Shown here one piece after another: positions 42,136 to 58,247 of a DNA stretch of 64,000 nucleotides. Source of the DNA: a virus; IMG/VR virus record IMGVR_UViG_3300022744_000001, positions 258,022 through 322,021 of that record. One strand, given 5' to 3'. The notes under the pieces were generated by a model, which saw nothing but the letters and a program-made list of their open reading frames with translations, ran no database searches and was not told where the DNA came from. The number at the start of each line of letters is the position of its first letter. The stretch's first letter is position 1. A program made the position numbers and the translations under genes.

Positions 42136-42606
42136 TCAGAAGTTCCAGCTAGAAATGTCCTGCCCCACGCACGCATACAGCGAAGTGTTTACCCCGTAGA
42201 CCCCATACCCCACGCCACGGGGGTACTGAATACCGTCCGGGTCAGGAAACTCAGTCAACCAAGACACGAAGCGGTTTGCGGTGCTATCCCAGGCGTAATT
42301 CACAACGCTCTTGTCACGCACCCAAACCGAAGTTGCCCAGGTACCCCCGAGGGAAGCACCCTCCACGAGAGGGGTGCTGGGGAAACTGTAGTTACCGCCC
42401 GAGTAGTTGGCTCCCGCTAAAGGTAAATACGAAGCGATTGTGCCAACACTCTTGCCGGTCGAGGAGTACCAACCACCACTTGCAACAACAACTGAGGGGA
42501 CCGTGTACGAAATAACTCGAGACGCGCTCGCAAAGTTGCCGCCGCCAGCAGTAACCACAGAGGTTACTGCCCCAAGGCTCCTCGTGTTTGTGGTGAAATT
42601 GGCCAA
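42136..42606 (-). CDS. small fibre-associated protein A1 (156 aa), paralog of A2; candidate tail-fibre assembly chaperone
   Basis: MANFTTNTRSLGAVTSVVTAGGGNFASASR… aligns with A2's MANFTGNSRTLSTVGVIATASGGNFAGASR…. It sits directly downstream of B1. Confidence 0.6.
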   Translation of the reverse strand: MANFTTNTRSLGAVTSVVTAGGGNFASASRVISYTVPSVVVASGGWYSSTGKSVGTIASYLPLAGANYSGGNYSFPSTPLVEGASLGGTWATSVWVRDKSVVNYAWDSTANRFVSWLTEFPDPDGIQYPRGVGYGVYGVNTSLYACVGQDISSWNF

Positions 42607-42614
42607 GGGTCACC

Positions 42615-43583
42615 TTAGAGCGTCGGCGCGGTATTGTTCTCCCACGGCACAACATGAGTGGAATCCACCCAAGCATAAGCATCCGTAGTGAGATTGGCCG
42701 TATCCGGGTAGGCTCGAGAGAAATTGCCCCCAAAAGCTAGGCGCTGAAAGATGCCCTTGAACCCATAGTTGGTAGCGCCATCAACTTGAAGTCGAAAGAG
42801 GCCCGCGAACAGGTAATACTCCTCGTTGCTGTCAAACGGGTTCGGGGAAACACTCTGATTCGCCGCAGTAGGAGGGATTGGCCCAACGGTACCCGAAGCA
42901 GTCGAAGCGGTCCAATGCCAGTTGGTGAAGCTAGCCCCGCTAAGACCGTACTTTGACCAGGCGAAAGTGGAAGTGTTGATCGGAGACAAAACGGCGGAGG
43001 TGACAAGACCTGCGGTGAGGTTGATGAAAATGCCTACGGGGGACGTGTCCAAGGCGTTCGTGTTATTGAGGCCGTCAAAGAAAATCCGCGTACGCGGCGT
43101 ACCGGTCGTGTTGTCAGTAGTGAAGAAAAAGAATGAGTAGACGTTGGTACTCACAACATCACTGAAAGCGATGCTGTGGCACTTGTACGTGTTGTCCGTG
43201 TTGAAGAGCGCCACGCCAGTAGGGGCAGCATCGGTACCAGAGCCAAGGATCACGCCCTCATCAGTTGCTGAAGGAGTTTGAGTGATTCCAGGGGTACCGC
43301 CTGTGAACTTAGCGCTCTCGGAAAATTTGACGCGCCAAAGCAGGTTCGTAGTCGTTCGCTGGAAAGTGAACTCCCGCTGAGTCCCCGGATCTTGGATACG
43401 AAACCACGCGTTGGTCGCGGCCAAAGAGGTCGAGAGCGTGATCTGGTCTCCGGTCGAGTTGTAGGTGGTGCCATTCGAACTCGACTTGACGACCCAGCCC
43501 GCAGAAACCAGCAACTGCTTCAACGAGAAAATCGCAGCAGCCCCGGTCGCAGGAGTTTGATTGACCGAAGTAAACTTCGCCAT
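42615..43583 (-). CDS. fibre-like protein B1 (322 aa), paralog of B2 and B3
   Basis: The N-terminus MAKFTSVNQTPATGAAAIFSLKQ…TTYNSTGDQIT…NAWFRIQDPGTQREFTFQRTT…LWRVKFSESAKFTGGTP is conserved across B1, B2 and B3. The C-terminal two thirds diverge but end in VPWENNTA. Confidence 0.75.
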   Translation of the reverse strand: MAKFTSVNQTPATGAAAIFSLKQLLVSAGWVVKSSSNGTTYNSTGDQITLSTSLAATNAWFRIQDPGTQREFTFQRTTTNLLWRVKFSESAKFTGGTPGITQTPSATDEGVILGSGTDAAPTGVALFNTDNTYKCHSIAFSDVVSTNVYSFFFFTTDNTTGTPRTRIFFDGLNNTNALDTSPVGIFINLTAGLVTSAVLSPINTSTFAWSKYGLSGASFTNWHWTASTASGTVGPIPPTAANQSVSPNPFDSNEEYYLFAGLFRLQVDGATNYGFKGIFQRLAFGGNFSRAYPDTANLTTDAYAWVDSTHVVPWENNTAPTL

Positions 43584-43589
43584 GGTACC

Positions 43590-44558
43590 TCACATCTGCG
43601 CGGCGGTATTGTCTTCCCACGGCACCGCAAAATCCGTGGAAGTCAGCACGTAGGAATTGCTGGTAATACTTTCCGTGAACGGGTAGGACCTTGCAAAATT
43701 CGTCACGTAGGCCAGACGCTGGCAAAACCCCTTGAACATAAGATTGGTGTCTGTGCTCGCCCGGTACAACCCCACCAGTTTCAGCAGTAGCTCATTACCA
43801 CTGTAGATGTCCGGGCCAACACCGTTTCCTGCCGTAGTCGCTGGCACATAAGCCGTGCCGATGTTGGCAATCGCCCACACCTTCCAGTTAGTGAAGGCTG
43901 CGCCGCTGAGCCCGTACTTGTACCAACCCCAAACCCACGTAAGAACTGTACCAGACATGAGAGTGCCAGCACTGAAGGCACCCGAGGAGTTCACCAGGAA
44001 GATCCCTAGCGGAGAAACGTCGGCCGCGTTTACCGGTGACAAACCGTCCACGAAAAACCGGGTTCGAATGTTTCCGGAGTTCGGGTAGTCCGTGGTGAAG
44101 AAGAAGAACGAGTACACGTTGGTCGCTACCGCATCGCTGAAAGCGATCGCATGGCACCGATAGGTCGCATCCGTGTTGAAGAGAGCTGCACCAGTAGGGG
44201 AAGCATCGGTACCCGAACCGAAGATCACACCCTCGTCGGTCGCAGAAGGTACCTGGGTAACGCCAGGAGTGCCCCCTGTGAACTTGGACGACTCAGAGAA
44301 TTTGATCCGCCACAGCGTGTTGTTGGTCGTCCTCTGGAAAACAAACTCTCGCCGTGTCCCAGGGTCCTGAATGCGGAACCACGCGTTGGTCGCGGCCAGA
44401 GACGTTGTGCCTGTGATCTGGTCCCCGGTCGAGTTGTAGGTGGTACCATCACTCGAGGCTTTGACTGACCAGCTCGCGTTCACGAGCGTTTGCTTGAGGC
44501 GGTAAACCGCTTCGGCACCAGTCGCTGGAAGGTTGTTGACTGAGGTGAACTTAGCCAT
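43590..44558 (-). CDS. fibre-like protein B2 (322 aa)
   Basis: The N-terminus MAKFTSVNNLPATGAEAVYRLKQ… has the same architecture as B1 and B3. Confidence 0.75.
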   Translation of the reverse strand: MAKFTSVNNLPATGAEAVYRLKQTLVNASWSVKASSDGTTYNSTGDQITGTTSLAATNAWFRIQDPGTRREFVFQRTTNNTLWRIKFSESSKFTGGTPGVTQVPSATDEGVIFGSGTDASPTGAALFNTDATYRCHAIAFSDAVATNVYSFFFFTTDYPNSGNIRTRFFVDGLSPVNAADVSPLGIFLVNSSGAFSAGTLMSGTVLTWVWGWYKYGLSGAAFTNWKVWAIANIGTAYVPATTAGNGVGPDIYSGNELLLKLVGLYRASTDTNLMFKGFCQRLAYVTNFARSYPFTESITSNSYVLTSTDFAVPWEDNTAAQM

Positions 44559-44561
44559 AGG

Positions 44562-45035
44562 TCAGTTCCATCCCGTGCGGTCACGCCCCACGTAGGTATA
44601 GCCAGAAGTGTTTGTTCCAAACGCCCCATACCCAGAACCCGAGGGGTAGAACTGCCCCTGGGGATCAGGCTGCTGCGTCCTCCACGTAACGATTCGACCT
44701 GCAATCGAGTCCCATACCGAGTTGATGATAGACAGATTTCGCGAAGGCCAAACCGAAGTCTGATAGTTTCCGCTGTTCTTGGGACCCTCAATCAAAGGGG
44801 TAGCCGGAAAGCTGTGGTTGCTACCCGAGTAGTTAGCGCCCGCAAGAGCCACATAAATGGCAGTTGTGGCTGAAAGCGAACGAGGAGTGGTTGCATAAGT
44901 ACCGCCTGAAGCGGTCGCGATTATCCCAATCGTCGTTGGGATAGAACGAGAAGCTCCAGCGAAGTTGCCCCCAGAGGCGGTCGCGATTACCCCAACCGTC
45001 GAGAGAGTGCGACTATTGCCCGTGAAGTTCGCCAT
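44562..45035 (-). CDS. small fibre-associated protein A2 (157 aa), paralog of A1
   Basis: See A1. It sits directly downstream of B3. Confidence 0.6.
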   Translation of the reverse strand: MANFTGNSRTLSTVGVIATASGGNFAGASRSIPTTIGIIATASGGTYATTPRSLSATTAIYVALAGANYSGSNHSFPATPLIEGPKNSGNYQTSVWPSRNLSIINSVWDSIAGRIVTWRTQQPDPQGQFYPSGSGYGAFGTNTSGYTYVGRDRTGWN

Positions 45036-45046
45036 AAGGCTCTACC

Positions 45047-46030
45047 TCAGAGAATCGCCGCGGTACTGTTTTCCCACGGAATCACGAAAGTCGTGTTGAC
45101 CCAGACATAGGCATCCGTGGTCAGGTTCAACGTGTCCGGATAGGTTCGAGCCGAGTTCATGTTGAGAGCCATGCGCTGGCTGATGCCTTTGTAGTGCTGG
45201 GAGGTGTCCGTGCTATCCCGGAAAGCCCCGCAAATTTTGGCAACGTCCTCGTCCCCCGCGTAACCGTTCGGGGAAACGCTCACGCTGTAAGGAGGAACCG
45301 ATGTCGCCGCCGAAGAACCTGTCGCAGTGCGGGTGAGCCCAAACATACGATAAACGTTGAACGCCGCGCCGCTGAGCCCGTACTTGTACCAAGCCCTTAT
45401 GATGTTGAGGGTGATAGTGACATTGTGGACATCTGTAGACGTCAAAATCGCAGTCTTGTACGCCGCAACGATGAAAAGAGGGGAGGTGTCTTGTGCGTTA
45501 GAGCTGTGGACGCCCGAAACAAAGAAGTAGGTACGAGTCAAGCCCGTGGTGAAATCCGTAGTGAAGAAATAAACGTCGTAGACGTTGGTACTCACTACGT
45601 CGCTAAAACAGATAGCGTGGCTGCGATAGGTCGCATCCGTGTTGAACATCTGCGTACCGGTTGCGGTAGAGTCGGTACCAAGAGCCGACCCGAACAACAG
45701 GGCTTCGTCGGTCGCTGTCGGGGTCGTCGTCGCGTTCGGGGTGCCACCCGTGAACTTGGACGACTCGGAGAATTTCACACGCCAGAGCGTGTTGTCCGTG
45801 CCTCTCTGGAAGGTGAACTCACGTCGCGTCCCGGGGTCCTGGATACGGAACCAAGCTCGAGTGACGGCAAGAGAAGCAGCTGAGGAGATCTGGTCTCCCG
45901 TGCTGTTGTACGTAGTGCCATCTCCGCTCGACTTGACAACCCAACCCGCACTAACCATGCAGGTTTTGAGGCGGTAGATTGCATCCGCCCCTGTCGAGGG
46001 AACCTGGTTCACCAGAGTGATCTTCGCCAT
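45047..46030 (-). CDS. fibre-like protein B3 (327 aa)
   Basis: MAKITLVNQVPSTGADAIYRLKT… is paralogous to B1 and B2. A GAGGGG ribosome-binding site lies about 9-14 nt upstream. Confidence 0.75.
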   Translation of the reverse strand: MAKITLVNQVPSTGADAIYRLKTCMVSAGWVVKSSGDGTTYNSTGDQISSAASLAVTRAWFRIQDPGTRREFTFQRGTDNTLWRVKFSESSKFTGGTPNATTTPTATDEALLFGSALGTDSTATGTQMFNTDATYRSHAICFSDVVSTNVYDVYFFTTDFTTGLTRTYFFVSGVHSSNAQDTSPLFIVAAYKTAILTSTDVHNVTITLNIIRAWYKYGLSGAAFNVYRMFGLTRTATGSSAATSVPPYSVSVSPNGYAGDEDVAKICGAFRDSTDTSQHYKGISQRMALNMNSARTYPDTLNLTTDAYVWVNTTFVIPWENSTAAIL

Positions 46031-46086: not shown

Positions 46087-48018
46087 TCACCCGATGCTGA
46101 AGCCCGTCCACAAAAGCGAGGCCATGGGGTTGGTCGTAGGAGAGGCGTCCAGATACACCCGAAGTTCGTAAACTCGAGCAGTGTTGAAAATCTGGTTGGT
46201 GTTCGTCCCTGGGCTCGCGGTTTGAGTCAAGGTCTGGTCAATCACGTTGTAGAGGTTGACGTTCGCGAACGGAATCACGACCTGGCTTCGCAGCACCGGA
46301 GCAAAGCTCGTCCCGCCTGGGCCAAGGTCATAGAGGCTCATCGTGAGGCTCGCCGAGCTGTCCGTGGTCGAGAACATCGCCACCATGCGGAGCTTGACCG
46401 TGGTTGTGCTGTAGAGGGTCGGGTCGAAGTAGAACCCACCCATCGATTGAGTTACACGAGCCAACGTGATGGTGCGCCCGGAGGCCGCCGTGAGCTGGAT
46501 ACCGGACAGGCCGCCCGTACCGCCCGGGATCGTCACCGTGATGGGGTTCGTCCCGCTTGCGGTGACGCCAGCCCCCACGAAGTTGATGGAGGTGACGCTC
46601 GAGGACAGAGCAGAGCCTTCATCCGAAACCGTGATAGCCGGGGTTGGGACGTTGACCGTGACCGCCGTGGTGCCAGAAGCCGTTACGCCGCCACCAGTGA
46701 AGTTGATGGAGGTGACGGCAGCCGAGAGGGTTGAGCCCTCATCCTGCACCGTCAGGGCACTACCAGCACTACCCGGGATCGTCACCGTCACTGACGAGGT
46801 GCCCGTCGCAGTGACCCCAGCACCGACGAAATCGATCGAGGTGACAGCAGCCGAGAGCGGAGTCCCTTCGTCCGAAACCGTGAGAGCGCTTCCCGTACTA
46901 CCAGGAATCGTGACGGTTACCGCAGACGTTCCTGTGGCGGTTACACCTGCCCCAACGAAGTTGAGCGAAGTAACTCCCGAGGTGAGGGTTGAGCCCTCAT
47001 CCTGGACAGTCAAGTTACTAGCAGGGATCGTCACCGTGACGTTCGAGGTGCCCGTGGCTGTTACGCCACCGCCTACGAAATTGAGAGTGGAGAGCGCTGT
47101 AGTGAGGTTCGAACCCTCGTCTTGAACCGTGACGCCGGGGACCGTGACCGTGACCGCTGTAGTCCCTGTGGAGGTGACTCCTGCCCCTACAAAGTTGAGC
47201 GACGTGACGGCCGTCGAAAGGGTTGAACCCTCATCCTGGACCGTCAGGGCACTCCCGGTGCTGCCAGGGATCGTGACCGTGACCGAAGAGGTACCCGTAG
47301 CAGTGACGCCCGCCCCCACAAAATTCAGCGACGAAACCGAACTCGAAAGGGTTGAACCCTCATCCTGTACCGTGATGGCTGGGGTCGGGATCGTCACTGT
47401 GACCGACGAAGTTCCCGTTGCGGTTACGCCACCCCCAACGAAGTTCATGGAGGTCACACTCGAGGAGAGCGTGGAACCTTCGTCCTGCACTGTCAGAGAA
47501 TTGCCCGGGATGTTGACCGTTACTGCCGAGGTTCCTGATGCAGTAACCCCCGCACCGGTAAAGTTCAGCGATGCGGCCCCCGACGTAAGCGTGACCCCCT
47601 CGTCCTGCACCGTGAGGGGGTTGCCCGGGACGTTGACGGTAACGGCTGTGGTACCTGATGCTGTAATGCCTGCGCCAGTGAAGTTCAGAGACGCAACGCC
47701 GGTAGAAAGCGTCGAGCCCTCGTCCTGCACCTCCAACCCGGGGATCGTGACCGTGACGGCTGTCGTACCGCTCGAGGCGACTCCTGCCCCCGTGAAATCG
47801 ATGGACGAGACCGAGTTGGAAAGGGTTGAACCCTCGTCCGAGACCGTGAGGGTGCTGGCCGGGACGTCCCAGACGTCGATGATGGTGTCGTCTACAAGAG
47901 GCCCGCCGAAAGGGGGAGGGTTCGGATACGCCGAGCCCGGAGAGGTCGAAACCCAGGTGACGTAAGTGGTGCCAGGGGCGCCGGAGTCCCTGGCTCGCTT
48001 CTTGTAGAAGAGGGTCAT
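46087..48018 (-). CDS. repeat-shaft fibre or spike protein R1 (643 aa): conserved N-terminal anchor, about 11 tandem repeats of ~35-42 aa, and a unique C-terminal tip
   Basis: The N-terminus MTLFYKKRARDSGAPGTTYVTWVSTSPGSAYPNPPPFGGPL…IDVWDV is shared with R2. The repeat unit is LTVQDEGSTLSxxVTSLNFVGAGVTATGTSxVTVTIPG(+/-GSTGSA). The C-terminal ~145 aa are unrelated to R2. Confidence 0.8.
   Translation of the reverse strand: MTLFYKKRARDSGAPGTTYVTWVSTSPGSAYPNPPPFGGPLVDDTIIDVWDVPASTLTVSDEGSTLSNSVSSIDFTGAGVASSGTTAVTVTIPGLEVQDEGSTLSTGVASLNFTGAGITASGTTAVTVNVPGNPLTVQDEGVTLTSGAASLNFTGAGVTASGTSAVTVNIPGNSLTVQDEGSTLSSSVTSMNFVGGGVTATGTSSVTVTIPTPAITVQDEGSTLSSSVSSLNFVGAGVTATGTSSVTVTIPGSTGSALTVQDEGSTLSTAVTSLNFVGAGVTSTGTTAVTVTVPGVTVQDEGSNLTTALSTLNFVGGGVTATGTSNVTVTIPASNLTVQDEGSTLTSGVTSLNFVGAGVTATGTSAVTVTIPGSTGSALTVSDEGTPLSAAVTSIDFVGAGVTATGTSSVTVTIPGSAGSALTVQDEGSTLSAAVTSINFTGGGVTASGTTAVTVNVPTPAITVSDEGSALSSSVTSINFVGAGVTASGTNPITVTIPGGTGGLSGIQLTAASGRTITLARVTQSMGGFYFDPTLYSTTTVKLRMVAMFSTTDSSASLTMSLYDLGPGGTSFAPVLRSQVVIPFANVNLYNVIDQTLTQTASPGTNTNQIFNTARVYELRVYLDASPTTNPMASLLWTGFSIG
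46524..47853 (-). repeat. imperfect tandem coding repeats of ~105-126 nt within R1
   Basis: Units such as gaagttgatggaggtgacg…cgtgaccgtgac recur about 11 times. The antisense ORFs 46466..47125 and 47129..47965 (VTPAPTKL repeats) are mirror artefacts. Confidence 0.7.
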
Positions 48019-48126
48019 GTCGAGTCTGCCTCAACCACGCAAAGCATAGGTCAAATATGGGTTCTCAGATTTGACTGCTGCCACTAAAACCAGGTGTGCC
48101 TTCCCCAGCACGAAACCATGAGTCGC

Positions 48127-48837
48127 CTAAGTCTGATCCAGTTTCCATTGCCAGTAGTTTGTATACGCCTGGATCTCGTCCTCGCCCCATTCCCTATCGT
48201 CGATGAAGGCGTCAAGGAAACCACCAGCCTGGAAGGCGGATAAGTTCGTGTTCTTGCCGAGCGTCATGGGGCTGGTTGCTGCGATGGAGTTCCCCAGTGA
48301 TGCGCCGTTCTTCCAACCGATTCGCGTGCCGTTGATGTACATCGCAGCGTAGTCAGCAACTGCCCCTCCGGTCTGCACAGTTTTCGACGAGATGCCTTGC
48401 CGAAACAAACAAATCGCCTTCGTGAACGAGTAGGAGGGTCCCGACACGCCCGTAGCGATCGCTGTGCCCAGGTTCACCCAAGCCCCCGCAGGCACAGATA
48501 GGTTAGCGTTCAGGTACCAGCCGCAGTTCGAGCCCGACCAGTTGGACATGGTCACTGAGCCCGAATAGAGAACGATGCCAGCTGTGGCCATCGGGATAGT
48601 CGAGGTGTTGAGCCACGACCAGTCGGCCGCACTGGCCCCCGCAATGGATTGGCTCGCACCGTCAAATGTCAGCACGGGCAGCCCAATACCTGTCGTGGTG
48701 GTAAGCGTGGCAGTGCCTGTCAAATTCTTGGGGATCCTGCCCATGTCAGTCAGCGTGCCGCCGCTGAATTTGTGCGGGCGAAACCAATTTCGAGGCTGCT
48801 TCCACAGATGATTTTGAAAGCGGGCAATGACAGGCAC
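48127..48837 (-). CDS. LamG-like (concanavalin-A-like lectin or glucanase fold) protein L1 (236 aa)
   Basis: The C-terminal motif LGKNTNLSAFQAGGFLDAFIDDREWGEDEIQAYTNYW matches the Laminin_G_3 end signature (G…F.G.IDEVRIYNRALSAEEI). An upstream LTFDGASQSI block is also present. Confidence 0.75.
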   Translation of the reverse strand: MPVIARFQNHLWKQPRNWFRPHKFSGGTLTDMGRIPKNLTGTATLTTTTGIGLPVLTFDGASQSIAGASAADWSWLNTSTIPMATAGIVLYSGSVTMSNWSGSNCGWYLNANLSVPAGAWVNLGTAIATGVSGPSYSFTKAICLFRQGISSKTVQTGGAVADYAAMYINGTRIGWKNGASLGNSIAATSPMTLGKNTNLSAFQAGGFLDAFIDDREWGEDEIQAYTNYWQWKLDQT

Positions 48838-48846
48838 GGTGCACCC

Positions 48847-49560
48847 CTAAATCTGGTCGAGCTTCCACTTCCAGTAGTTCGTGTATGCCTGGATTTCGTC
48901 CTCACCCCACTCACGATCGTCCACGAACAGGTCTAGGAACCCGCCAGCCACAAAGGCATTCGTACTGAGGTTTTTACCCACTTGGAATGGGATCGCCGGA
49001 TTGACCGCGCCAGCGGTCCAAGTGCCCGCAGCGCGGTGGCCCACACGAAGGCCGTTGACGTACGCGGCTCCGGTATCGAAACCTGTGCTTGGCGAAACTG
49101 ATGTCCTTGTTGGTGGCGCAACACGAAACACAACCACTTGCTTGCCTGCAACGTTGCAGCCGGAAGCGCCGCACCGATAGAGCAGCGTCCCCGACGTGGT
49201 CTGGATGGCAAGGTCGGTGCCCGTGCTGCCCCACGCCAATCCGAAGACACCTGCCGTACCTGCCCCGCCCCATGTTCCAGGTTGGATCGTTCCAGTGTAT
49301 ACGACCCCGCCCATGGTGAAGGGGCCGGTCTGCATGAAGAACCAGTCCGCCACGCTGGACGCAGCCAGATACTCGCTGGTGCCATTGAACGAGCAGCCCC
49401 ACCCGCCATTCGTTAACGTCAGAGTGGCCGAACCTGTGGTGAAGTTTTTGGGCGAACGCCCCGAGTCGAGATATGACCCAGCCGCCTGCATTCGCCCCGG
49501 ATTGTACCAATGAAGCGGCTGTTGCCACTGCTCATTCACGGCGCGCGCCAAGTAAGCCAT
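48847..49560 (-). CDS. LamG-like protein L2 (~238 aa from the internal Met MAYLARAVNEQW…)
   Basis: The motifs are CSFNGTSEYL and VGKNLSTNAFVAGGFLDLFVDDREWGEDEIQAYTNYW. The track ORF extends to 49623, but that N-terminal extension overlaps L3. The start is chosen at 49560, giving a TGATG overlap with the L3 stop. Confidence 0.7.
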   Translation of the reverse strand: MAYLARAVNEQWQQPLHWYNPGRMQAAGSYLDSGRSPKNFTTGSATLTLTNGGWGCSFNGTSEYLAASSVADWFFMQTGPFTMGGVVYTGTIQPGTWGGAGTAGVFGLAWGSTGTDLAIQTTSGTLLYRCGASGCNVAGKQVVVFRVAPPTRTSVSPSTGFDTGAAYVNGLRVGHRAAGTWTAGAVNPAIPFQVGKNLSTNAFVAGGFLDLFVDDREWGEDEIQAYTNYWKWKLDQI

Positions 49561-50261
49561 CAGATCAGCCCCAACTTGTAATGCCAAAACCGTGTGTAGG
49601 CATAAACCTCGTCGTCCATCCACTCACGATTGTCGAGGAAGAAGTCGAGAAAGGTTCCCGCCTGAAAGCCTGACTGTGTAGAAGTCTTGCCAATGATGAG
49701 GGGACCCGCGGGAGTGACTGAGTTTGTGGTCCACGTTGAGTTCTTGAAGCCATAACGCCACCCATTGAAATAGCCGAAGCCCCACTCAATCTGCACACCG
49801 CCGATCGATGTGTGCGAAGACAACCCGCACCTGAAAACATGAACGGCTTTCACCGCAGGCATCACCTGGTTCATTACTCGCCAGACCGCCGAACCCGCGT
49901 TGGACATGAGACAGTCGGCCGATGCCGACCCTGGACCTGCGTTTACGGAAATCCCAGTGTTGGTCACGGCTGTGCGCGTGCACGGCGACATGATGCCCGT
50001 GTAAACCACCAGGCCCATCGTCCACGATGTATTGTGCAAGTAGGTCCAGTCCGCAGCCGCAGCGGCTGACAGGGACTGGCTGGTGCCGTTGAACGAGCCG
50101 TAAAGCACACCATTGCTGGTCGTGGTGCTCATGGTGCCGGTTAGGTTCTTGGCCGTACCTGAGCCCGAATCGGACAGCGTGCCACCGCTGTAGTCCTGTG
50201 GGCGCCAGCGATGATCGACCGACCGAACGAACAAAGGCTCAGTGCGTTGAAGGCGCGGCAT
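49560..50261 (-). CDS. LamG-like protein L3 (233 aa)
   Basis: The motifs are GSFNGTSQSL and IGKTSTQSGFQAGTFLDFFLDNREWMDDEVYAYTRFW. The N-terminus MPRLQRTEPLFVRSVDHRWRPQDYSGGTL parallels that of L1. Confidence 0.75.
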   Translation of the reverse strand: MPRLQRTEPLFVRSVDHRWRPQDYSGGTLSDSGSGTAKNLTGTMSTTTSNGVLYGSFNGTSQSLSAAAAADWTYLHNTSWTMGLVVYTGIMSPCTRTAVTNTGISVNAGPGSASADCLMSNAGSAVWRVMNQVMPAVKAVHVFRCGLSSHTSIGGVQIEWGFGYFNGWRYGFKNSTWTTNSVTPAGPLIIGKTSTQSGFQAGTFLDFFLDNREWMDDEVYAYTRFWHYKLGLI

Positions 50262-50264
50262 TGG

Positions 50265-52253
50265 TTACCCCACCAGATGCCAGTTGGTACCATCTGCCAT
50301 GAAATATGCTGACTCGCCGTCAGAGATCATGACCCACGAGGACGAAGTCTTGCTCAACGGGGTGACGATATTCCCCGTAAAAGCCACGGTAACTTGGTAG
50401 CCATAAGCCGGACCCTCTATTTTGACCGCAATCTGTGCACCGTTTGTTGCTGTCGGCAAATTCACGGTAAGGTTGGCTGAGGCTGCAAAAGGGTCAACTC
50501 GTACGAAATCCCCCGCCGCTGCGTTGTAGGTAGCAGTTTTTACCGCAGTAAACGTGTACGGGTTACTGCTAACGCCCGGGATCGTCACCGTGACCGGGTT
50601 CGTCCCGCTTGCGGTGACGCCTGCACCGGTGAAATTGATCGTAGTGACACTCGAGGAAAGCGTGGACCCTTCGTCCTGAACCGTAATCACCGGGGTTGGG
50701 ACGTTGACCGTGACCGACGAGGTACCCGTCGCAGTCACACCGCCGCCAGTGAAGTTCAGCGAAGTGACCGCGCTCGAAAGGGTCGAACCCTCATCCTGAA
50801 CCGTCAACGAACTTCCAGGAACCGTAACCGTGATGTTCCCCGTTCCGCTCGCGGTAACACCACTGCCAACGAAGTTCAGCGAAGTGACGTTGGTTGAGAG
50901 TGTCGAACCCTCATCCTGAACCGTGATCGCGGGGCTTGGAATGGTGACCGTGACTGCCGTTGTCCCCGTAGCAGTGACGCCCCCTCCCACGAAGTCGATG
51001 GAGGTAACCGCAGCCGAAAGCGTGGAGCCTTCATCTTTGACAGTAAGAGCGCTCCCACCTCCAGGAATCGTGACCGTGACAGCAGAGGCACCTGTGGCTG
51101 TGACCCCTGCGCCAACGAAATCGATCGACGCGACTGTGGTTGAAAGCGGAGTGCCTTCATCTGAAACCGTGAGAGCTGTGGCGGGGATCGTCACCGTGAC
51201 CGACGGCCCACCGGTTGCCGTAACCCCAGCTCCGACGAAGTTGAGAGTGGTGGCAGCCGTAGTGAGGGTGGAACCCTCGTCCTGTACCGTCAACGAACTC
51301 CCGGGGACCGAGACCGTCACCGTTCCTGTCCCCGACGCCGTGACCCCCGCGCCGGTGAAGTTCAGGGTGGAGACGCTCGAGGAGAGCGTGGAACCCTCAT
51401 CCTGTACCGTGAGAGAGCTGCCCGGGACCGTCACCGTGACCGCTGTGGTACCCGTGGCCGTGACCCCTGCGCCCACGAAGTCGATCGAGGTCACCGCACT
51501 CGAGAGGGTGGAACCTTCGTCCTGAACCGTGATGGTGGGAGCTGGGACGTTGACCGTCACCGTCCCAGGGCCGCCGCTCGAGGTGACCCCCGCGCCGGTG
51601 AAGTTCAGGGTCGTCGCCGCGGTCGAAACCGGAGTCCCTTCATCCTGCACCGTGAGCCCAGGGACGTTGACCGTGACTGCCGTTGTCCCCGTCGCTGTAA
51701 TCCCTGCGCCGGTGAAATTGATCGATGTGGCGGCGCTCGAGAGCGTCGAGCCCTCATCCTGAATGGTCAGCCCAGCCGATTCGGCCGCATGCTCAACCGA
51801 GTAGTACCACTGGACGCCCGAGCCAAAGTCTCGAGCCACAGCGTGCACCACCGAGACCGCGTTGGCCGCCGGGTTGATCGTCACCGTGGGGTCAACAGGT
51901 ACCCAGTTCGAACCAAACGCCAGAGTCCGCCCGCCCGTGGCGTCCTGCTTGACCGCCACCCAGAGGAGCTTGGTCGCCGAGGAGTGGGTAGGATTCCCGA
52001 GCGTCCGGTTGCCCCCCAGCGTGACCTGGAAATGGTCGCCAAGCTCGAGGTCAATAGCGATGGTCGCAGCATCTGTCAGAGTGACGACGTCGCCAAACAC
52101 CTCCCACACATCGACAATCATCTCTTCCGAGAGAGGGCCGCCGAAGGGGGGACTAAAGGGGTATGCCAGGCTGGCAGAGGTCGTCACCCAGGTCACGTAG
52201 GCTGGGGTAACGGACCCTGTATCTCTAGCTCGTTTCTTGTAGTACCGAGCCAT
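50265..52253 (-). CDS. repeat-shaft fibre or spike protein R2 (662 aa), paralog of R1 with a ~105-aa insertion and a different C-terminal tip
   Basis: The N-terminus is MARYYKKRARDTGSVTPAYVTWVTTSASLAYPFSPPFGGPL…VDVWEV. About 12 repeats of the same LTVQDEGSTLSxAVTSxNFxGAGVTATGT…VTVxIPG unit follow. The C-terminal ~100 aa (…ISDGESAYFMADGTNWHLVG) are unique. Confidence 0.8.
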   Translation of the reverse strand: MARYYKKRARDTGSVTPAYVTWVTTSASLAYPFSPPFGGPLSEEMIVDVWEVFGDVVTLTDAATIAIDLELGDHFQVTLGGNRTLGNPTHSSATKLLWVAVKQDATGGRTLAFGSNWVPVDPTVTINPAANAVSVVHAVARDFGSGVQWYYSVEHAAESAGLTIQDEGSTLSSAATSINFTGAGITATGTTAVTVNVPGLTVQDEGTPVSTAATTLNFTGAGVTSSGGPGTVTVNVPAPTITVQDEGSTLSSAVTSIDFVGAGVTATGTTAVTVTVPGSSLTVQDEGSTLSSSVSTLNFTGAGVTASGTGTVTVSVPGSSLTVQDEGSTLTTAATTLNFVGAGVTATGGPSVTVTIPATALTVSDEGTPLSTTVASIDFVGAGVTATGASAVTVTIPGGGSALTVKDEGSTLSAAVTSIDFVGGGVTATGTTAVTVTIPSPAITVQDEGSTLSTNVTSLNFVGSGVTASGTGNITVTVPGSSLTVQDEGSTLSSAVTSLNFTGGGVTATGTSSVTVNVPTPVITVQDEGSTLSSSVTTINFTGAGVTASGTNPVTVTIPGVSSNPYTFTAVKTATYNAAAGDFVRVDPFAASANLTVNLPTATNGAQIAVKIEGPAYGYQVTVAFTGNIVTPLSKTSSSWVMISDGESAYFMADGTNWHLVG
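50567..51770 (-). repeat. imperfect tandem coding repeats within R2
   Basis: These have the same unit type as the R1 repeats. The antisense ORFs 50923..51525 and 51529..51762 are mirror artefacts. Confidence 0.7.
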
Positions 52254-52256
52254 TCT

Positions 52257-53435
52257 TCAACCCCACTGAATGACCAGCTTGGCACTCGTGCATGTCACCC
52301 GGTCCGTAGGGCCACCAGAAGACGTCATACGAAGAACAACCTCGTACTCCTTCTCCCCTGCGGGCAACGTGACAACCTCCTCGACAAGGGCCGGGACGTC
52401 AGAAGCCGTGGTGAGAGTGTTGCTGACGTATGCCCCGTCCGTGACGTTGTAGAGCCTCACCTCAGCAGTCTTCCCCGAGGTGGCTTCAATCAGCGCCCGA
52501 AAGGTGGTGATCGCCGTGGAAGGGAACTTCGAAGGGTTGACCGTGCCCGTGCCGATACGGGTAGAAATCGTCTGGTCAGTAGACCGGTTGCCCGCTACAA
52601 GCTCGAACTCCTCCGAAACCCTCTCCACGTTCGTGCCCAGAACGCTCGAGTTGGCCAGATACCAGGCTGTCCCGTTGGAGGCGAACTCGAGGTCGTACCG
52701 AACGTAGGAAACGCCTGTAGGGGGCGCCTGGAGCGTCAGAAGGGCCGTCCCGCCCACCCCGTTCTTGATCGTCAGTCCTCCGGCACCCGGTTGCAGCTCA
52801 ACCCAATACCGGAACGTCTTGCCCTCGCCCGGGGCCGGAGAAACCACCAGCTCCTCCGTGTAGAGCCCCGCACCGGTGAGGGTCAGCATCCGATACGGCT
52901 TGCTCGAGCCGTCCGTGACTTGAACCGTGACCGGGGAGCCCGACGTGTGGGCGACCGTTTGAATGTGCCCGACGTACCGCCCAACCTTTGCCTTGAGGAA
53001 CCGTAGATAGGCGTCAAGTTGGGAGTTCGTCGAGGCATTCGCCCGGCCAGCCCAGCCCGCTTTTTGGGCCGCAACCGACTGGTTGGTCATGTTGCCGGTC
53101 TGACCCGCCGAGGGGAGCGTGAGCCCATCCTCGTCCACCACACCGAAGAACTTGAAGTCCGTGGTGATCGTGGCGCCTTCAGTGCGGGTCAGCTTGATGA
53201 TGTAGGTACCATCAAGAGTAGGGGTCACCGTCGCCACCTGAGCGGTAGAGTTGGTAACGGTCGGAGCAGAGGACAAAGGCGCTGGCCATGACACGACCTC
53301 CCAGAGGTACGAGGTCGCCCCCGCACCCCCAGCATCGGTCATCGTGACAACCTGGTTCGCACTGAAGCCGAACACGGATTGCCCGTTGCCCCCAACGATT
53401 ACCCCTTGGGTAAACTGACAGGTCGCTACGGCCAT
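52257..53435 (-). CDS. virion structural protein (392 aa)
   Basis: A long ORF with beta-rich composition directly upstream of R2. Confidence 0.7.
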   Translation of the reverse strand: MAVATCQFTQGVIVGGNGQSVFGFSANQVVTMTDAGGAGATSYLWEVVSWPAPLSSAPTVTNSTAQVATVTPTLDGTYIIKLTRTEGATITTDFKFFGVVDEDGLTLPSAGQTGNMTNQSVAAQKAGWAGRANASTNSQLDAYLRFLKAKVGRYVGHIQTVAHTSGSPVTVQVTDGSSKPYRMLTLTGAGLYTEELVVSPAPGEGKTFRYWVELQPGAGGLTIKNGVGGTALLTLQAPPTGVSYVRYDLEFASNGTAWYLANSSVLGTNVERVSEEFELVAGNRSTDQTISTRIGTGTVNPSKFPSTAITTFRALIEATSGKTAEVRLYNVTDGAYVSNTLTTASDVPALVEEVVTLPAGEKEYEVVLRMTSSGGPTDRVTCTSAKLVIQWG

Positions 53436-53439
53436 GATT

Positions 53440-53958
53440 TCACGCCAAGGTGATCGAGAAGGTCACCGTCAAAGTGTCGTTGGTAAAGAGAGTACGCTGC
53501 GAGAACTGGATCTCGTGCGCCATCGTGCCTGCACTGGACAGGTCGAACAGGGCAGTCTTCTGCACACCCTGAGACGAAATGCCCGTATAGGTGAAGATCT
53601 TCTGAACGACCGTCTGGGTACCTGAGCCAGTCGGAAGAGTCACCGTGCCCAACGCACGGTCGAGCCCGTTACCGGTCAGCTCACTCGCCAAAGTCGTATC
53701 GCCCGCCGCAGGAGCCGCCGCATCGTTCGACAAAGCGATGTAGTTGAAACCGCCACCGAGGCCCGAGCGTTGACCCGCCGACCCGTAGATGTACGTGTGG
53801 ATCTGACGGCGCCCGGCATCCGTGACGATGTTCCACGACTCCTGCTCGTCGATCACCTTGAGAAGATAGAGGCCCGACTTCTCATCGAAGTCATAGGGCC
53901 TCTCGTGGCGAATGAAAGCCTTGGCCCGGGGCCCCTGCATCTGGATCGTCGGCAGCAT
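53440..53958 (-). CDS. virion structural protein (172 aa)
   Basis: An ORF in the operon with protein-like composition. Confidence 0.6.
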   Translation of the reverse strand: MLPTIQMQGPRAKAFIRHERPYDFDEKSGLYLLKVIDEQESWNIVTDAGRRQIHTYIYGSAGQRSGLGGGFNYIALSNDAAAPAAGDTTLASELTGNGLDRALGTVTLPTGSGTQTVVQKIFTYTGISSQGVQKTALFDLSSAGTMAHEIQFSQRTLFTNDTLTVTFSITLA

Positions 53959-53979
53959 GTACGGTTCCTCCTACTCTCT

Positions 53980-54792
53980 TCAAAAATCCATCGAATGATC
54001 TTCGGACACGACCGACTTGTTTTCCTTGACCCCCAGACGGTCTCTGTCTTTGAGCCCTCTTGGGTAAACTCGGAAGTCGTCGTACCAATAGTTGGCAAGT
54101 CTCCAACGCATTGCGTCGTTGACCTTCCCTGTCGTATCTGCATTCGGGGTGTATGTGTCTCGAAAGATGTACCGAATGCGGAAAAGCGTGTGCGCCGGTC
54201 TCAGGATGTCCAAAATGAGCCGGATATTCGAGTCCAGAGAGAACACCTCGGAGGGGAAGCCTCCGAGCGAGTCAATGTCGATCTGGAACCCGAACTGGTC
54301 AGAAATGTCGAGGCCAGAAGCCCCCGCACGCACGAGGAGGAAGTTCTCCGTGATGGTCACGTTGTTCGAAACGAACAGCTGCACGCCATCACGCATGCTC
54401 CCAGGTACCGAGCCCTGGAAATAGATGCGGATCACGTTGAGCAGGAACTGCTTGAACTCCTGGTCGTCGAACGTCGTGATCGGAAGCTTGCCGTTCAAGA
54501 AGACCAGGTACCCAATGATGCTGTAGAGGAACTCCGAGCGCGTGTTCTTGAAGTCCCCGTCCAGGCTCACGTCCTCAAGCGCCAGCTCGAGCTTGGAAAG
54601 CTCCACCGCCACAGCCTTCAACTCGTTCGTGTAGTTGGGGCCCTGGACCGTTGAGATGTAGTTCGAGGGAAGCAGGTTGAGGAGGTTCGTGAAAATCGAC
54701 TGCGCCCGCGTAGCAAGGCGGAGGTTGTATTCCTTGCCTTGCTGCTGGATCGTGTAGTTGAGTCGATTCGGGTCTTGAACAAGCCTCGGCAT
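53980..54792 (-). CDS. virion or baseplate-associated protein (270 aa)
   Basis: An ORF immediately downstream of the 1148-aa protein. No motif was recognised. Confidence 0.6.
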   Translation of the reverse strand: MPRLVQDPNRLNYTIQQQGKEYNLRLATRAQSIFTNLLNLLPSNYISTVQGPNYTNELKAVAVELSKLELALEDVSLDGDFKNTRSEFLYSIIGYLVFLNGKLPITTFDDQEFKQFLLNVIRIYFQGSVPGSMRDGVQLFVSNNVTITENFLLVRAGASGLDISDQFGFQIDIDSLGGFPSEVFSLDSNIRLILDILRPAHTLFRIRYIFRDTYTPNADTTGKVNDAMRWRLANYWYDDFRVYPRGLKDRDRLGVKENKSVVSEDHSMDF

Positions 54793-54800
54793 ACTTCACC

Positions 54801-57800
54801 TCAAGTGGCTGTCCTGAAAGTGATCGTGAAGTTGCCAAGCTCCACGAACTCGACACCCGAAGCGGAGACGTCCTTGGAGCCCGAGTCCCCACGAACCACG
54901 TACGAGACGGCATAGCCGTGGTTCCCCGGAAGGTCCGAAGAGGGCAGGGCAACTACAACGTGATTGGCAGTACGGCGAAGCAACTCAGCCTCCTGTGCAG
55001 CCGCTGTTGTGAACCCAGCAGCGAGCAACGTGGCCGAATCTGTGTACCCCGCAATGAGGGCCCCCGAAGACCCAATAATGTACGCCTGGTTAGATGCGCT
55101 TGCGACGAGTGCCAAAGTCGCAGACAAAGTCATAGCCTCGTCATCTTGGAACACGCCCTTGTGTTCCGTGGTGAGGCCGCCGCCATCAGTCGTTGGGGAT
55201 TGCAACGGAGCGGTGAGGATGAAAGCCAAGTTCCCGCCAATACCCAGCGAGGTCAGCTCAAGACTTGCCGAGGAGAGGCTCTCCCGGAGCTTACGGGAAC
55301 CATCCGCATAGGCCATGCGCGCGAAGGGGACGACCTGGAAATCGACCCCCGTTGTGGAGTCGATGGCATTGATCATGTCGCTCTGGGCAACACCCTGACC
55401 AATCGTGCGCTTGTTGAGTTCGAGGCTGGCATTTGACCGGATGGCCGGGTCAGCCTTGTCCCTGGTGGCGCCGGAGAGCAACTGGACCGTCGTCTCAATG
55501 TCGATGGAGTTGTTGATCGCCTGCTTGACGATGACATCCGCCGTTACGTGGCGACGAGAGTTGATCGTCCGCTGGAGCTGCTGAAGCAGGTCGTTGATCA
55601 CGTAAGTGACCGTGAAATTCTCATCATGGACGTAGTCCACAGAGACCGCTGCGCCGTTCACGATGTCCGAGGTGGCGGTACGAACAATACGCACAGGGGT
55701 CGTGGCAGTACCGTCGATGACCTGGTAATCCGGGTTCGTGGCATCAGGCCCGTCATACTCGATGGAGCGGTCGGCATTGAACACTCGAATGGTCTTGGTG
55801 TTGATGCCGATGCTGAGAAGGGGCTCCTCGATGAACCCAATCAGCGTATGCACTTCATCGTTCACCGTGATGGTTTCACCCGAGGGGATACCGCCCACTT
55901 GGTTGATGGAGAGGTAGTCGCTTGCAATGGTGCTTTCACCCTCGAGCAGCGGGTCCTCGGTCTTGTAGAGGTTGTACCCAAGCGACGTGTCCAAAGTGCC
56001 GGAAACTTCGCCCACAACCGAAACTACGCGTCGAACCGGCTGCAACGAGAACTTGAACTGGTTCACGACGCGGAACCGGTAGTCGGCCGTGACCACGTCA
56101 TCGATATTGGTCGCAACTTGACCTACGAGCGAGGGGTCAAGCTTGAACGTCTGGTAGTCGATGATCTGGGCGTTGGTCAGAAGGTAGTCCAAACCCTGAG
56201 TCACGTTTCGGACGCCAAGGCCCTGGCCCGAATTGTCGAGCAGCTCGACAATCGGGGTATTCACCGTGACGCGGCTGTCCTGAACCCGGAAGGTGAGGGT
56301 TGGTAGGTCGATGATCTGGCAGATGATGTCGCGCGCAATCTCGAACGTGAACGCGAACTTCTCCGAGACCTGACGTTCACGAAGACCCTGAACCCAGATA
56401 TCAACTTTGCCCCCGATGTGCTTGTGCCGAACCAGGTCGTAGTCGCGCATCATGAGGTCGTCGCCCGACTTCACGACCTTGGCTTTGATGACCCCTACCT
56501 GCTCGGCCGACGTCGAGGTGTAGCCACCCTCGGTACCCGTATCGACCGACACGAAGCCAAGGAGCGCTCGAGCAGCAAGGTCGGCATTCGACTCGCGGTC
56601 CGCACCAAAGACCGTGGCCTCCAGGTTCGTGACCAGAAGCCCCGTGACGCCTTGAGAGCTGGTAATCTGACCGGCTGGGCGGTTACCCACTTCGCCGAGG
56701 GTCTCCGCCACGATATCGACAGTGATTTCGTAACGCTTGCGGTCGAAGTTGTAGTAGGAATCCGCCTGGGCGGCGGACATGACGTAGGTGCCACCGACAC
56801 GGTAACGCACCGACGGGATGCCCAAAGAGCTATCCGCACTGGTGCTCACGATGGTGCCAGCGGGGATTGGAAGGTCGAAGGTCGGCCGAGACGTCGTGTA
56901 GAAGACCTCTTGCCCCACTGCCGGACGGCCAGGGAGGCGAGTCTTGTTCACGTTGGCAGCGAGCTTGTCAAAAGCCGAGTCGATGAGCGACTGAACCGCT
57001 GCGTCAGTCGAGTAGCCCAAGGCCGCCTTCAAAGCCGTCTTGTAGGCGCTGCTCGCGACCGGGTCCGATACCCCATCCCCGTTCGCATCATCGATTTGAA
57101 GCAGGGTCAGGAAGCTCTGGGCCCGGTGGATGAAGTCGAGCAGGAAGTAGAGACGCTCAGCTTCGGAAGAGAACGGGTCGATGGACACGTCGCGGGTAGT
57201 CGAGCCAGGGATGAGGCTGATCTCCTGGTCCACCCGCTGAATCGCCGCAACGTAATCGGTCAGAACCTGAAACTGGGTGCGGCCCGGAAGGTCCCTGATG
57301 GCCGTGTCGATGGTCAGAGGTGTCCCAAGCACTTCCTGAGAAAAGGCGCTCTCAACCTCCACCGAGGTGGCGCTGTCGAAGTAAACCCCCGTCACAACAT
57401 AGTAGAGAGGGTCCGTATCGGCCACCGAAGCGAACTGGTCGCTATTCAGGATGCCGGTACCTCCCGACCGATAGTGACGAAATCTCGCGTACTGGGTCAG
57501 GGTCCGCTCTTGAAGCGTCGAGGTGAAACGTAGGTCCCCCGAGTAGTCGGTGACCGTGTAGGTCTGGTCGAGGCGCGTCGAGATTTCATTCCCGAACACG
57601 TCCTCCTCGGTCACCTTGACCCGGATGACATTACCCGTCTCATTCCGTGTCCAAACGGTGGACTCATCCCCAATGTCTGACGTCGTTTCGTCGTAAACAC
57701 CCGAGGCCGACGTGATGAGATTCTCGTTCAGGAGAAAGTAGCCCGTGGTACCCGCGGGGGACGTCGAGGCGTAGACGTTGAACCCTTGGAAAATAGCCGT

Positions 57801-58247
57801 TTCTGTGGCCCCGTAAGCACCTTGCTCGATGGTTGCGGGGATAGCCGCCAGAATATCCACCGCATCTCGACGCCGCCGAACCTTGATGCCCGAGGGGATG
57901 TCCACCTGGGCCACGTCGCTCTGTCGGATTTTCGTGACCGAAACCAGAGCCGTTGCGCTGACCCCGCCAACGATATCGATGGTGCGCACCAAAATCGTGT
58001 TGAGGCCAGGCTCGAGGATCAACCCTTCCGTGTACGAACTCGGGTTCGGAATCGTGAACGCGGGCAGGTCGAAGCTCACCAGGGTAGGGTCAGAAACGAA
58101 CGCCCCGCCGTTGATCGAAACCTGGATATCCACTGCCGAGGTATCCGCGAGGCCCTCGATGAAGATCGAGCTGCGGTTCGTACTGAACACGAGGTTTTGG
58201 GTGTACCCCGATCCATCCCTGAGTTTAATCTGCGGTGCAGTGGCCAT
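54801..58247 (-). CDS. large virion protein (1148 aa). A baseplate-wedge (gp6/J-like) role is suggested only by size and by its position upstream of the fibre cassette
   Basis: A single 3.4-kb ORF. The functional assignment is positional inference and is not motif-based. Confidence 0.7.
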   Translation of the reverse strand: MATAPQIKLRDGSGYTQNLVFSTNRSSIFIEGLADTSAVDIQVSINGGAFVSDPTLVSFDLPAFTIPNPSSYTEGLILEPGLNTILVRTIDIVGGVSATALVSVTKIRQSDVAQVDIPSGIKVRRRRDAVDILAAIPATIEQGAYGATETAIFQGFNVYASTSPAGTTGYFLLNENLITSASGVYDETTSDIGDESTVWTRNETGNVIRVKVTEEDVFGNEISTRLDQTYTVTDYSGDLRFTSTLQERTLTQYARFRHYRSGGTGILNSDQFASVADTDPLYYVVTGVYFDSATSVEVESAFSQEVLGTPLTIDTAIRDLPGRTQFQVLTDYVAAIQRVDQEISLIPGSTTRDVSIDPFSSEAERLYFLLDFIHRAQSFLTLLQIDDANGDGVSDPVASSAYKTALKAALGYSTDAAVQSLIDSAFDKLAANVNKTRLPGRPAVGQEVFYTTSRPTFDLPIPAGTIVSTSADSSLGIPSVRYRVGGTYVMSAAQADSYYNFDRKRYEITVDIVAETLGEVGNRPAGQITSSQGVTGLLVTNLEATVFGADRESNADLAARALLGFVSVDTGTEGGYTSTSAEQVGVIKAKVVKSGDDLMMRDYDLVRHKHIGGKVDIWVQGLRERQVSEKFAFTFEIARDIICQIIDLPTLTFRVQDSRVTVNTPIVELLDNSGQGLGVRNVTQGLDYLLTNAQIIDYQTFKLDPSLVGQVATNIDDVVTADYRFRVVNQFKFSLQPVRRVVSVVGEVSGTLDTSLGYNLYKTEDPLLEGESTIASDYLSINQVGGIPSGETITVNDEVHTLIGFIEEPLLSIGINTKTIRVFNADRSIEYDGPDATNPDYQVIDGTATTPVRIVRTATSDIVNGAAVSVDYVHDENFTVTYVINDLLQQLQRTINSRRHVTADVIVKQAINNSIDIETTVQLLSGATRDKADPAIRSNASLELNKRTIGQGVAQSDMINAIDSTTGVDFQVVPFARMAYADGSRKLRESLSSASLELTSLGIGGNLAFILTAPLQSPTTDGGGLTTEHKGVFQDDEAMTLSATLALVASASNQAYIIGSSGALIAGYTDSATLLAAGFTTAAAQEAELLRRTANHVVVALPSSDLPGNHGYAVSYVVRGDSGSKDVSASGVEFVELGNFTITFRTAT

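Follow-up and report, generated by a model that had tools for sequence, protein, structure and literature searches.

Two genes, R1 and R2, in a 64,000-nucleotide stretch of an uncultured virus genome (IMG/VR record IMGVR_UViG_3300022744_000001, positions 258,022 to 322,021; hereafter the window, with coordinates counted from its first letter) encode large proteins that share a 52-amino acid (aa) N-terminal motif and a shaft of tandem ~40-aa repeats and end in different tips. From their sequences and genomic context, we consider it probable that these paralogues are tail fibres, probably trimeric, acting as receptor-binding proteins (RBPs) of a huge, soil-type, myovirus-like phage, each assembled from exchangeable modules, and that they lie in a host-recognition hot spot of the baseplate region. 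Three features by which RBPs are recognised were found here: a location in the tail and baseplate module, a break in synteny, and a lineage-conserved attachment part joined to a horizontally exchanged distal part. An earlier inspection of the DNA letters and their open reading frames alone (the original prediction) had proposed a fibre with an anchor, a shaft and different tips. That reading now gains support from the position in the baseplate module, the synteny break, the domains fused to the repeat unit in homologues and the jelly-roll model of the R1 tip.

Architecture of R1 and R2

All sizeable genes of the window lie on the minus strand, as do the window features described below. R1 (46,087–48,018) encodes 643 aa and R2 (50,265–52,253) encodes 662 aa, the two open reading frames having exactly the ends originally given. 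Residues 1–52 of each protein carry the motif (47,863–48,018 in R1; 52,098–52,253 in R2), which scored 100.7 and 106.1 bits, respectively, with a hidden Markov model (HMM) of the motif. The resemblance between the N-termini that had been noticed by inspection is clear, with 31 of the first 56 residues identical and 59.6% identity over 52 aa by BLAST. In R1 the motif is followed by a shaft of 11 units of 38–43 aa (residues 57 to ~500; 46,519–47,850). In R2 a domain resembling Phage_phiTE_241_C (PF26209; residues 57–161; 51,771–52,085) stands between the motif and a shaft of 10 units of 38–42 aa (residues 162 to ~561; 50,571–51,770). Both shafts were delimited by repeat parsing and Tandem Repeats Finder. 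The original prediction of 11–12 repeats of 35–42 aa was thus right about the tandem repetition and wrong about counts and lengths, which we correct to 11 units in R1 and 10 in R2, of 38–43 aa; its ~105-aa insertion in R2 is real (residues ~57–161), the likely presence of a known domain having been missed. As it also held, the proteins end in unrelated C-terminal domains of ~100–145 aa. The R1 tip is ~143–146 aa long (46,090–46,518) and is predicted by AlphaFold2 (AF2) to be an all-beta jelly roll, and the R2 tip is ~101–104 aa long (50,268–50,570). No similarity was detected between the two, their local alignment score of 27 falling below the mean for shuffled sequences (30.6 ± 5.6).

A 52-aa motif is the only conserved element of a hypervariable stretch

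R1 and R2 are located in a hypervariable stretch of tightly packed genes, between conserved baseplate genes and a conserved gene for an 1804-aa protein. The upstream flank (52,257–58,247), supported by Pfam and PHROGs matches and 67–87% identical to the syntenic contig L002, begins with a Baseplate_J-like baseplate wedge protein of 1148 aa (54,801–58,247; Pfam E = 7.5e-16; phrog_6 E = 1.8e-27), followed by proteins of 270, 172 and 392 aa. The downstream flank is the 1804-aa protein itself (36,667–42,081). When searched by tblastn against the deposited phage collection, the baseplate protein had only two matches, one in a 485-kb uncultured phage (37% identity, covering 99% of the protein) and one in the 309-kb Tunturiibacter phage Tunturi_5, an acidobacterial soil phage. 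Among the other products of the window are a DNA polymerase and two helicases, one of them DnaB-like. These replication genes, together with baseplate relatives in genomes of 485 and 309 kb, indicate that the window belongs to a huge phage genome.

We compared the region with five syntenic relatives: L002 (55.9 kb), L004, L007, L034 (a 110-kb IMG/VR contig) and L035. In L002, the Baseplate_J protein is 85.5% identical to that of the window and the 270-, 172- and 392-aa proteins are 87%, 83% and 67.5% identical; the 1804-aa protein is 72% identical over its full length to an 1800-aa protein, and two further proteins of 579 and 214 aa are 60% and 83% identical. Homologues of the 1804-aa protein also occur in L007, L034 and L035. 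Between the 392-aa and 1800-aa genes, L002 has genes for proteins of 402, 406, 405 and 149 aa where the window has R2-A-A-A-R1-B-c-B-B-c (A, B and c are paralogue families described below). The break falls at the same place in L004, L007, L034 and L035, with different contents again. In all five relatives the genes of the variable stretch are wholly different from those of the window, and the sole element in common is the 52-aa motif. In well-studied phage groups, conserved structural synteny broken by divergent genes is a signature used to find receptor-binding genes (Latka et al. 2019, PMC6872550). Separately, L004 has an extra 256-aa gene (4380–5150 of that contig) between the 172-aa and 392-aa baseplate genes, absent from the window; it has faint HTH and NUMOD3 matches and looks like an insertion of the homing-endonuclease type.

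By six-frame scan, the motif occurs exactly twice in the window, where R1 and R2 each begin with it, and exactly once in each relative. The relatives carry it at the C-terminal end of other proteins, among them P0192 (149 aa), P0237 (132 aa) and P0170 (150 aa), to whose last 50 residues the R1 motif is 57–63% and the R2 motif 63–71% identical. The carrier in L007 is P0264, a 1016-aa array of Laminin_G_3 domains with the motif at its C-terminus; in L034 and L035 the motif ends small proteins, with 0 residues after it. In four relatives the motif gene immediately precedes the 1800-aa gene; in the fifth, L034, one gene intervenes. Searching 1.84 billion representative proteins with the motif profile yielded 69 matches. 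The motif is near-complete in 64 of these, all of them proteins other than R1 and R2, and is terminal in every one, with at most four residues after it in 62 and never more than 15; the part ahead of it ranges from 2 to 963 residues (median ~52), the long carriers being lectin-like Laminin_G_3 arrays. No Pfam or PHROGs entry matched the motif. R1 and R2 are the exceptions, with an N-terminal motif followed by 591 and 610 residues instead of a position at the C-terminal end. The N-terminal anchor originally proposed thus describes these two proteins correctly and misses the C-terminal position that the motif has in the 64 others.

Motif identity is 59–71% to L002 and L004, whose core genes are 60–87% identical, and ~53% to L007, with core genes at 37–67%, so that the motif diverges at about the rate of the baseplate and core genes. 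Because the relatives retain nothing else of the variable stretch, and because the motif diverges in step with the core genes, it would be a docking interface to a conserved virion component; it most likely docks proteins onto a conserved partner in the baseplate or at its periphery, and we refer to it as a putative docking plug. The 1804-aa protein is a candidate for that partner, being conserved in all relatives and either adjoining the motif gene or lying one gene away; its only domain match, to Big_5, was sub-threshold. In P0263 (54 aa) and P0259 (66 aa) the motif stands almost alone, so that in some genomes it is a complete mini-protein. Several variants have "SAC...LPCGG" in place of "SG...PPFGG", a cysteine pair that could form a disulfide or bind metal.

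The shaft unit is a widespread, uncatalogued repeat

Units were parsed by the anchor pattern [LIV][TE][VI][QSK]DEG. The consensus of 21 aligned units is LTVQDEGSTLSxxVTSLNFVGAGVTATGTxxVTVTIPG, with a mean column identity of 71% and ten invariant columns (D5, E6, G7, F19, G21, G23, G28, T33, V34 and P37). At the DNA level, Tandem Repeats Finder reported arrays with periods of 120 and 129 nt and 64–79% matches. Repetition of the unit in R1 and R2 is far beyond chance.

The original reader did not recognise the unit as a named family, and none was found. Against Pfam there were only chance matches below threshold (SecD_1st at 22.5 bits, cutoff 27), there was no match in PHROGs or NCBIfam, and phmmer and unit-profile searches of all PDB chains found nothing better than E = 1.4. 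R1 and R2 as a whole had no PDB sequence match either, fibritin included. Metagenomic proteins gave a different picture: a search with R1 recovered 881 at E ≤ 0.001 among 8000 candidates scored. Applied to 120 listed matches, the unit HMM found 2–12 copies in each, flanked by many unrelated N- and C-terminal parts. Domains fused to or co-occurring with the unit include C1q, collagen, Peptidase_S74, YadA head, DUF2793 and Gly_rich_2, and all the Pfam domains of these homologues lie outside the repeats; one homologue is named "tail fiber domain-containing protein". In GTDB, sampled at one genome per species, most proteins with the unit have just one or two copies; they span 330–1340 aa and come from very diverse metagenome-assembled genomes (MAGs), again with collagen, S74 and DUF5907 domains alongside. 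The unit is therefore a widespread family that is uncatalogued in Pfam, PHROGs, NCBIfam and the PDB. The partner domains C1q, collagen, Peptidase_S74, YadA and DUF5907 are typical of trimeric fibres, from which we infer that R1 and R2 are probably trimers.

Repeat number varies in the family, whereas the window repeats are old

The original prediction regarded the repeats as imperfect in DNA, alike within and between the genes, and hence as a substrate for repeat-number change or tip swapping by homologous recombination. The first part agrees with our measurements: mean DNA identity between units is 0.68 within R1, 0.66 within R2 and 0.67 between the genes, with a maximum of 0.81. The second divides. 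Paired units of the window have longest exact matches of 25–29 nt, and at identical residues they use the same codon in a fraction of 0.41, against 0.38 expected from codon usage, which means that synonymous sites are saturated and that no trace of recent conversion or duplication is left. These units are old and kept alike by selection on the protein. At ~67% DNA identity, with such short exact matches and saturated synonymous sites, they are today no more than marginally suited to homologous recombination.

In the wider family, repeat-number change and tip exchange are real. P0014, an 851-aa fibre of contig L001, contains three units that are 96–98% identical in DNA. Length polymorphism, which had been suggested as something to look for in related sequences, was found in 13 pairs of homologues that have near-identical ends and differ by one or two units, for example P0004 and P0005, with 9 and 8 units in 663 and 620 aa.

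Tips and associated gene cassettes

AF2 was used for monomer models only, of a seven-unit shaft segment (from a 16-row alignment) and of the R1 tip. The AlphaFold check proposed with the original prediction succeeded for the tip and failed for the shaft. The last ~150 residues of R1 gave a confident model (pLDDT 80.8, pTM 0.76) with ~9 strands. Foldseek matched it to birnavirus VP2, the TNF-like domain of Pgp3, carbohydrate-binding modules, lambda J, the KP1 gp12 short fibre and the cyanophage A4 fibre, as well as to phage proteins of the collagen/C1q type. The model suggests a generic jelly-roll knob of the type found at fibre tips, the ~9-strand jelly roll being shared with C1q/TNF-like and CBM-like fibre-tip knobs. 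A tip of the R1 type (40–48% identity) forms the C-terminal half of P0121–P0124 and occurs mid-protein in the repeat-bearing P0076. The R1 tip alone, used as a homology query, returned no matches even though these proteins carry the domain, which reflects a word-index limit of the search rather than absence.

The N-terminal half of P0121–P0124 is 63–68% identical to the R2 insertion. The insertion itself had more than 500 matches, nearly all with a precomputed PF26209 assignment (best E = 2.8e-43, 68% identity), and on the strength of its 63–68% identity to such proteins, residues 57–161 of R2 are assigned provisionally to the PF26209 family. In the other carriers inspected the domain is near the C-terminus, within ~14–20 aa of the end in the examples examined (within 15 aa in 33 of 119 by BLAST coordinates), whereas that of R2 is flanked by plug and shaft and would sit near the base of the fibre.

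The R2 tip and the last 96 aa of P0014 share 81% identity. The contig that encodes P0014 is otherwise unrelated to the window, and the N-terminal 580 residues of this protein are quite different from R2. Downstream of R2 in the window are three tandem paralogues, A1–A3 (233, 258 and 236 aa; 48,127–50,261), which lie between R2 and R1. Three A-family genes also follow P0014 in L001 (12,677–14,675), in the same order and at 47%, 67% and 39% identity, and the two sequences have no gene in common beyond the tip and A1–A3. Collinearity in an unrelated contig implies that the tip and A1–A3 move as one cassette; DNA identity to L001 is ~71%, so the exchange is not recent. A1–A3 share a strongly conserved C-terminus (..FLDxFxD[DN]REWG[ED]DEIQAYTxYWxWKLDQI). 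They had no family match and no PDB match; they may serve the R2-type tip as accessory proteins, in its assembly or as distal binding proteins. The idea that they are Laminin_G_3 or ConA-like proteins found no support, with no Pfam match, no PDB match and an hhalign probability of 0.3% against the LamG-rich P0264. As called mechanically, A2 (48,847–49,623) starts at a GTG and shares 64 nt with A1. Its true start is probably 49,491, as the 213-aa homologue in L001 begins at the residue matching Met45 (MQAAGSY...). L001, with its R2-type tip cassette, and L031, a contig with three consecutive PF26209 proteins, one of them with an R1-type tip, come from the same metagenome (JGI sample 3300049855), so that R1 and R2 modules co-occur in one community.

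R1 is followed by a second set of paralogues, in the order B (327 aa), c (157 aa), B (322 aa), B (322 aa) and c (156 aa) (42,136–46,030). The B proteins are 53–60% and the c proteins 53% identical to one another, and neither family had a match in Pfam, PHROGs or NCBIfam. B and c genes are absent from L002, L004 and L007; L034 has a weak B-like stretch (28% identity) after its motif protein. A cassette of R1 tip plus B and c genes was not found in L031 or L033. Two possible relationships were considered and rejected, namely that the B proteins are counterparts of the ~400-aa paralogues of the relatives, which comparison did not bear out, and that the c proteins (156/157 aa) are diverged motif-bearing small proteins (BLAST E = 3). 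R1 and R2 head two gene cassettes within the hypervariable region. Genes of the fibre region leave just one sizeable gap, of 108 nt, which separates A3 from R1 (48,019–48,126); it contains a terminator-like hairpin (48,111–48,096) and may mark the boundary between the R2 and R1 cassettes; across 42–54 kb, promoter-like and terminator-like sites are no commoner than in shuffled sequence.

Other large genes of the structural region

The structural region also has very large open reading frames, of 2377 aa (22,245–29,378) and of 1804 aa (36,667–42,081, the flanking gene described above). Proteins of 1527 aa (16,964–21,547) and 867 aa (31,543–34,146) have their N-terminal ~300 residues in common (38% identity) and diverge beyond, making them a second pair of large window proteins with a common N-terminal module. 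Residues 304–389 of the 1527-aa protein had weak PHROGs matches to "tail protein / tail fiber".

Discussion

We propose that the 52-aa plug would mount each fibre on the conserved baseplate or a peripheral partner, and that the shaft of 10–11 beta-rich ~40-aa units would act as a spacer of adjustable length. At the far end, R1 would present a jelly-roll knob and R2 a tip of ~100 aa, mobile between phages in company with the three small genes downstream of it; proximally, R2 would also carry a Phage_phiTE_241_C-like domain. The tips, perhaps with the PF26209 domain and A1–A3, would bind different receptors and so give one attachment system two specificities. New specificities would arise by replacement of whole distal cassettes, with junctions at or in the repeat shaft, and shaft length would change by gain or loss of units, as seen in relatives and not recently in this genome. 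A more ambitious version, which we hold only tentatively and regard as doubtful, is a display system of reversible polarity: the motif would be a position-independent plug for one baseplate socket, taking lectin arrays and small adaptors by their C-termini and fibres by their N-termini, and the unit would be a new trimeric fibre fold, with fibre reach set by the number of copies.

Several observations weigh against the interpretation of R1 and R2 as tail fibres. No homologue of the repeat was found in 50,697 deposited phage genomes by tblastn with R1, by tblastn with a less biased homologue fragment or by blastn with R1 DNA, a result to which a low-complexity filter may have contributed; megablast of the 12-kb region against deposited phage genomes gave no match, and the annotation has no characterised fibre as its anchor. 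The AF2 monomer of seven shaft units was not confident (pLDDT 42) and was unusable for a fold search; this value would fit an obligate oligomer, though it proves nothing, and the rod shape of the shaft is deduced from context. The structural matches of the R1 tip are generic (TM ~0.5, 14–15% identity). The N-terminal plug is without precedent in its own family, since the motif is C-terminal in all 64 other near-complete carriers, and it could have another role, for example as a folding nucleus.

That last possibility, the chief rival explanation, would make the motif a small oligomerisation or folding nucleus that registers three chains, with a role like that of the C-terminal foldon of T4 fibritin, attachment to the virion being left to something else. 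A terminal, self-contained mini-domain that can make up nearly the whole of a 54-aa protein (P0263), that is usually C-terminal like the foldon and that very different domains precede or follow would suit such a role. By eye, "RDSG....YVTWV" in the motif may loosely resemble "RDGQAYVRKDGEWV" of the foldon. Yet a generic trimerisation unit need not be the sole element kept in the variable stretch, nor occur as a single copy in each relative, next to the same conserved gene; many carriers are so small (median ~52 aa before the motif) that there is little to trimerise, and the PDB searches with R1 and R2, which covered fibritin, were negative. We therefore think a foldon-like role unlikely.

The arrays might instead be an active recombination device, in which frequent unequal crossing-over within and between R1 and R2 would, in today's population, lengthen or shorten shafts and exchange tips. 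Two direct-orientation arrays of the same unit lie 4.2 kb apart, very recent unit duplication and copy-number differences occur in relatives, and R2 and P0014 have a tip in common and N-terminal parts that are not. In the window, however, the units are only ~67% identical in DNA, their exact matches end at 25–29 nt, codon sharing (0.41 against 0.38) is about that expected, and the exchange with L001, at ~71% DNA identity, is old; we judge current activity of this kind to be quite improbable. Very unlikely, in our view, is a third account in which R1 and R2 are other surface or accessory proteins, such as decorative whiskers or adhesins for non-host material, that stand beside baseplate genes by chance. 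It would fit the lack of a characterised homologue among deposited phage genomes and PDB entries and the presence of single units in large proteins of no assigned role in bacterial genomes and MAGs, but the genes are flanked by baseplate genes and interrupt synteny as receptor-binding genes typically do, and their homologues combine the repeat with domains known from tail fibres, among them the intramolecular chaperone Peptidase_S74.

As tail fibres, R1 and R2 would have parallels. Phages with several RBPs that share an N-terminal anchor or "conserved peptide" include the Klebsiella KP32, Menlow and PhiK64-1/RaK2 groups and E. coli phage G7C (Latka et al. 2019, PMC6872550). There, too, structural synteny is interrupted by divergent, horizontally exchanged receptor-binding genes, and several RBPs per phage combine a short group-specific N-terminal sequence with variable distal parts (PMC6872550). 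R1 and R2 differ in that the shared module is a 52-aa unit found at the C-terminus of all other carriers, and in that the distal parts would be repeat rods with small knobs in place of depolymerase beta-helices. General Pfam and PHROGs scans of the neighbouring genes turned up no T4gp10-like branching domain, no dedicated search for one having been made. In KP36viruses a docking domain is documented to have moved to the N-terminus of a fibre (PMC6872550), and an attachment module appears to have made the same move here; unlike in those phages, the module of the window would have switched from C- to N-terminal and been duplicated onto two fibres, the donors being small proteins or lectin-like arrays. 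T4-type fibres (gp12, gp34 and gp37) and other trimeric beta-structured phage fibres have a rod of beta-rich tandem repeats, each some tens of residues long, that links the attachment domain to the receptor-binding tip. The shafts of R1 and R2 would share this arrangement and have, by the phmmer and profile searches of all PDB chains, no sequence relationship to these fibres. The multi-fibre design with a shared anchor is thus already known; new here are the uncatalogued common shaft unit, the duplicated N-terminal motif and a PF26209-like domain near the base of one fibre.

Phage host range is set by exchangeable RBPs, and the rules by which these are mounted are known for just a few cultured groups. 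The locus described here offers testable handles in an uncultured lineage of huge phages, and its interest lies in the plug and the unit rather than in the idea of recombination. The ~40-aa unit could be entered as a new Pfam family and is a target for structural work; the plug, if its docking role is true, would be a useful part for fibre engineering. The R2 tip is a clear example of a tip moving between unrelated phages together with three accessory genes, and a compact 52-aa module, tolerating either end of its cargo, appears sufficient to define what is mounted on the virion.

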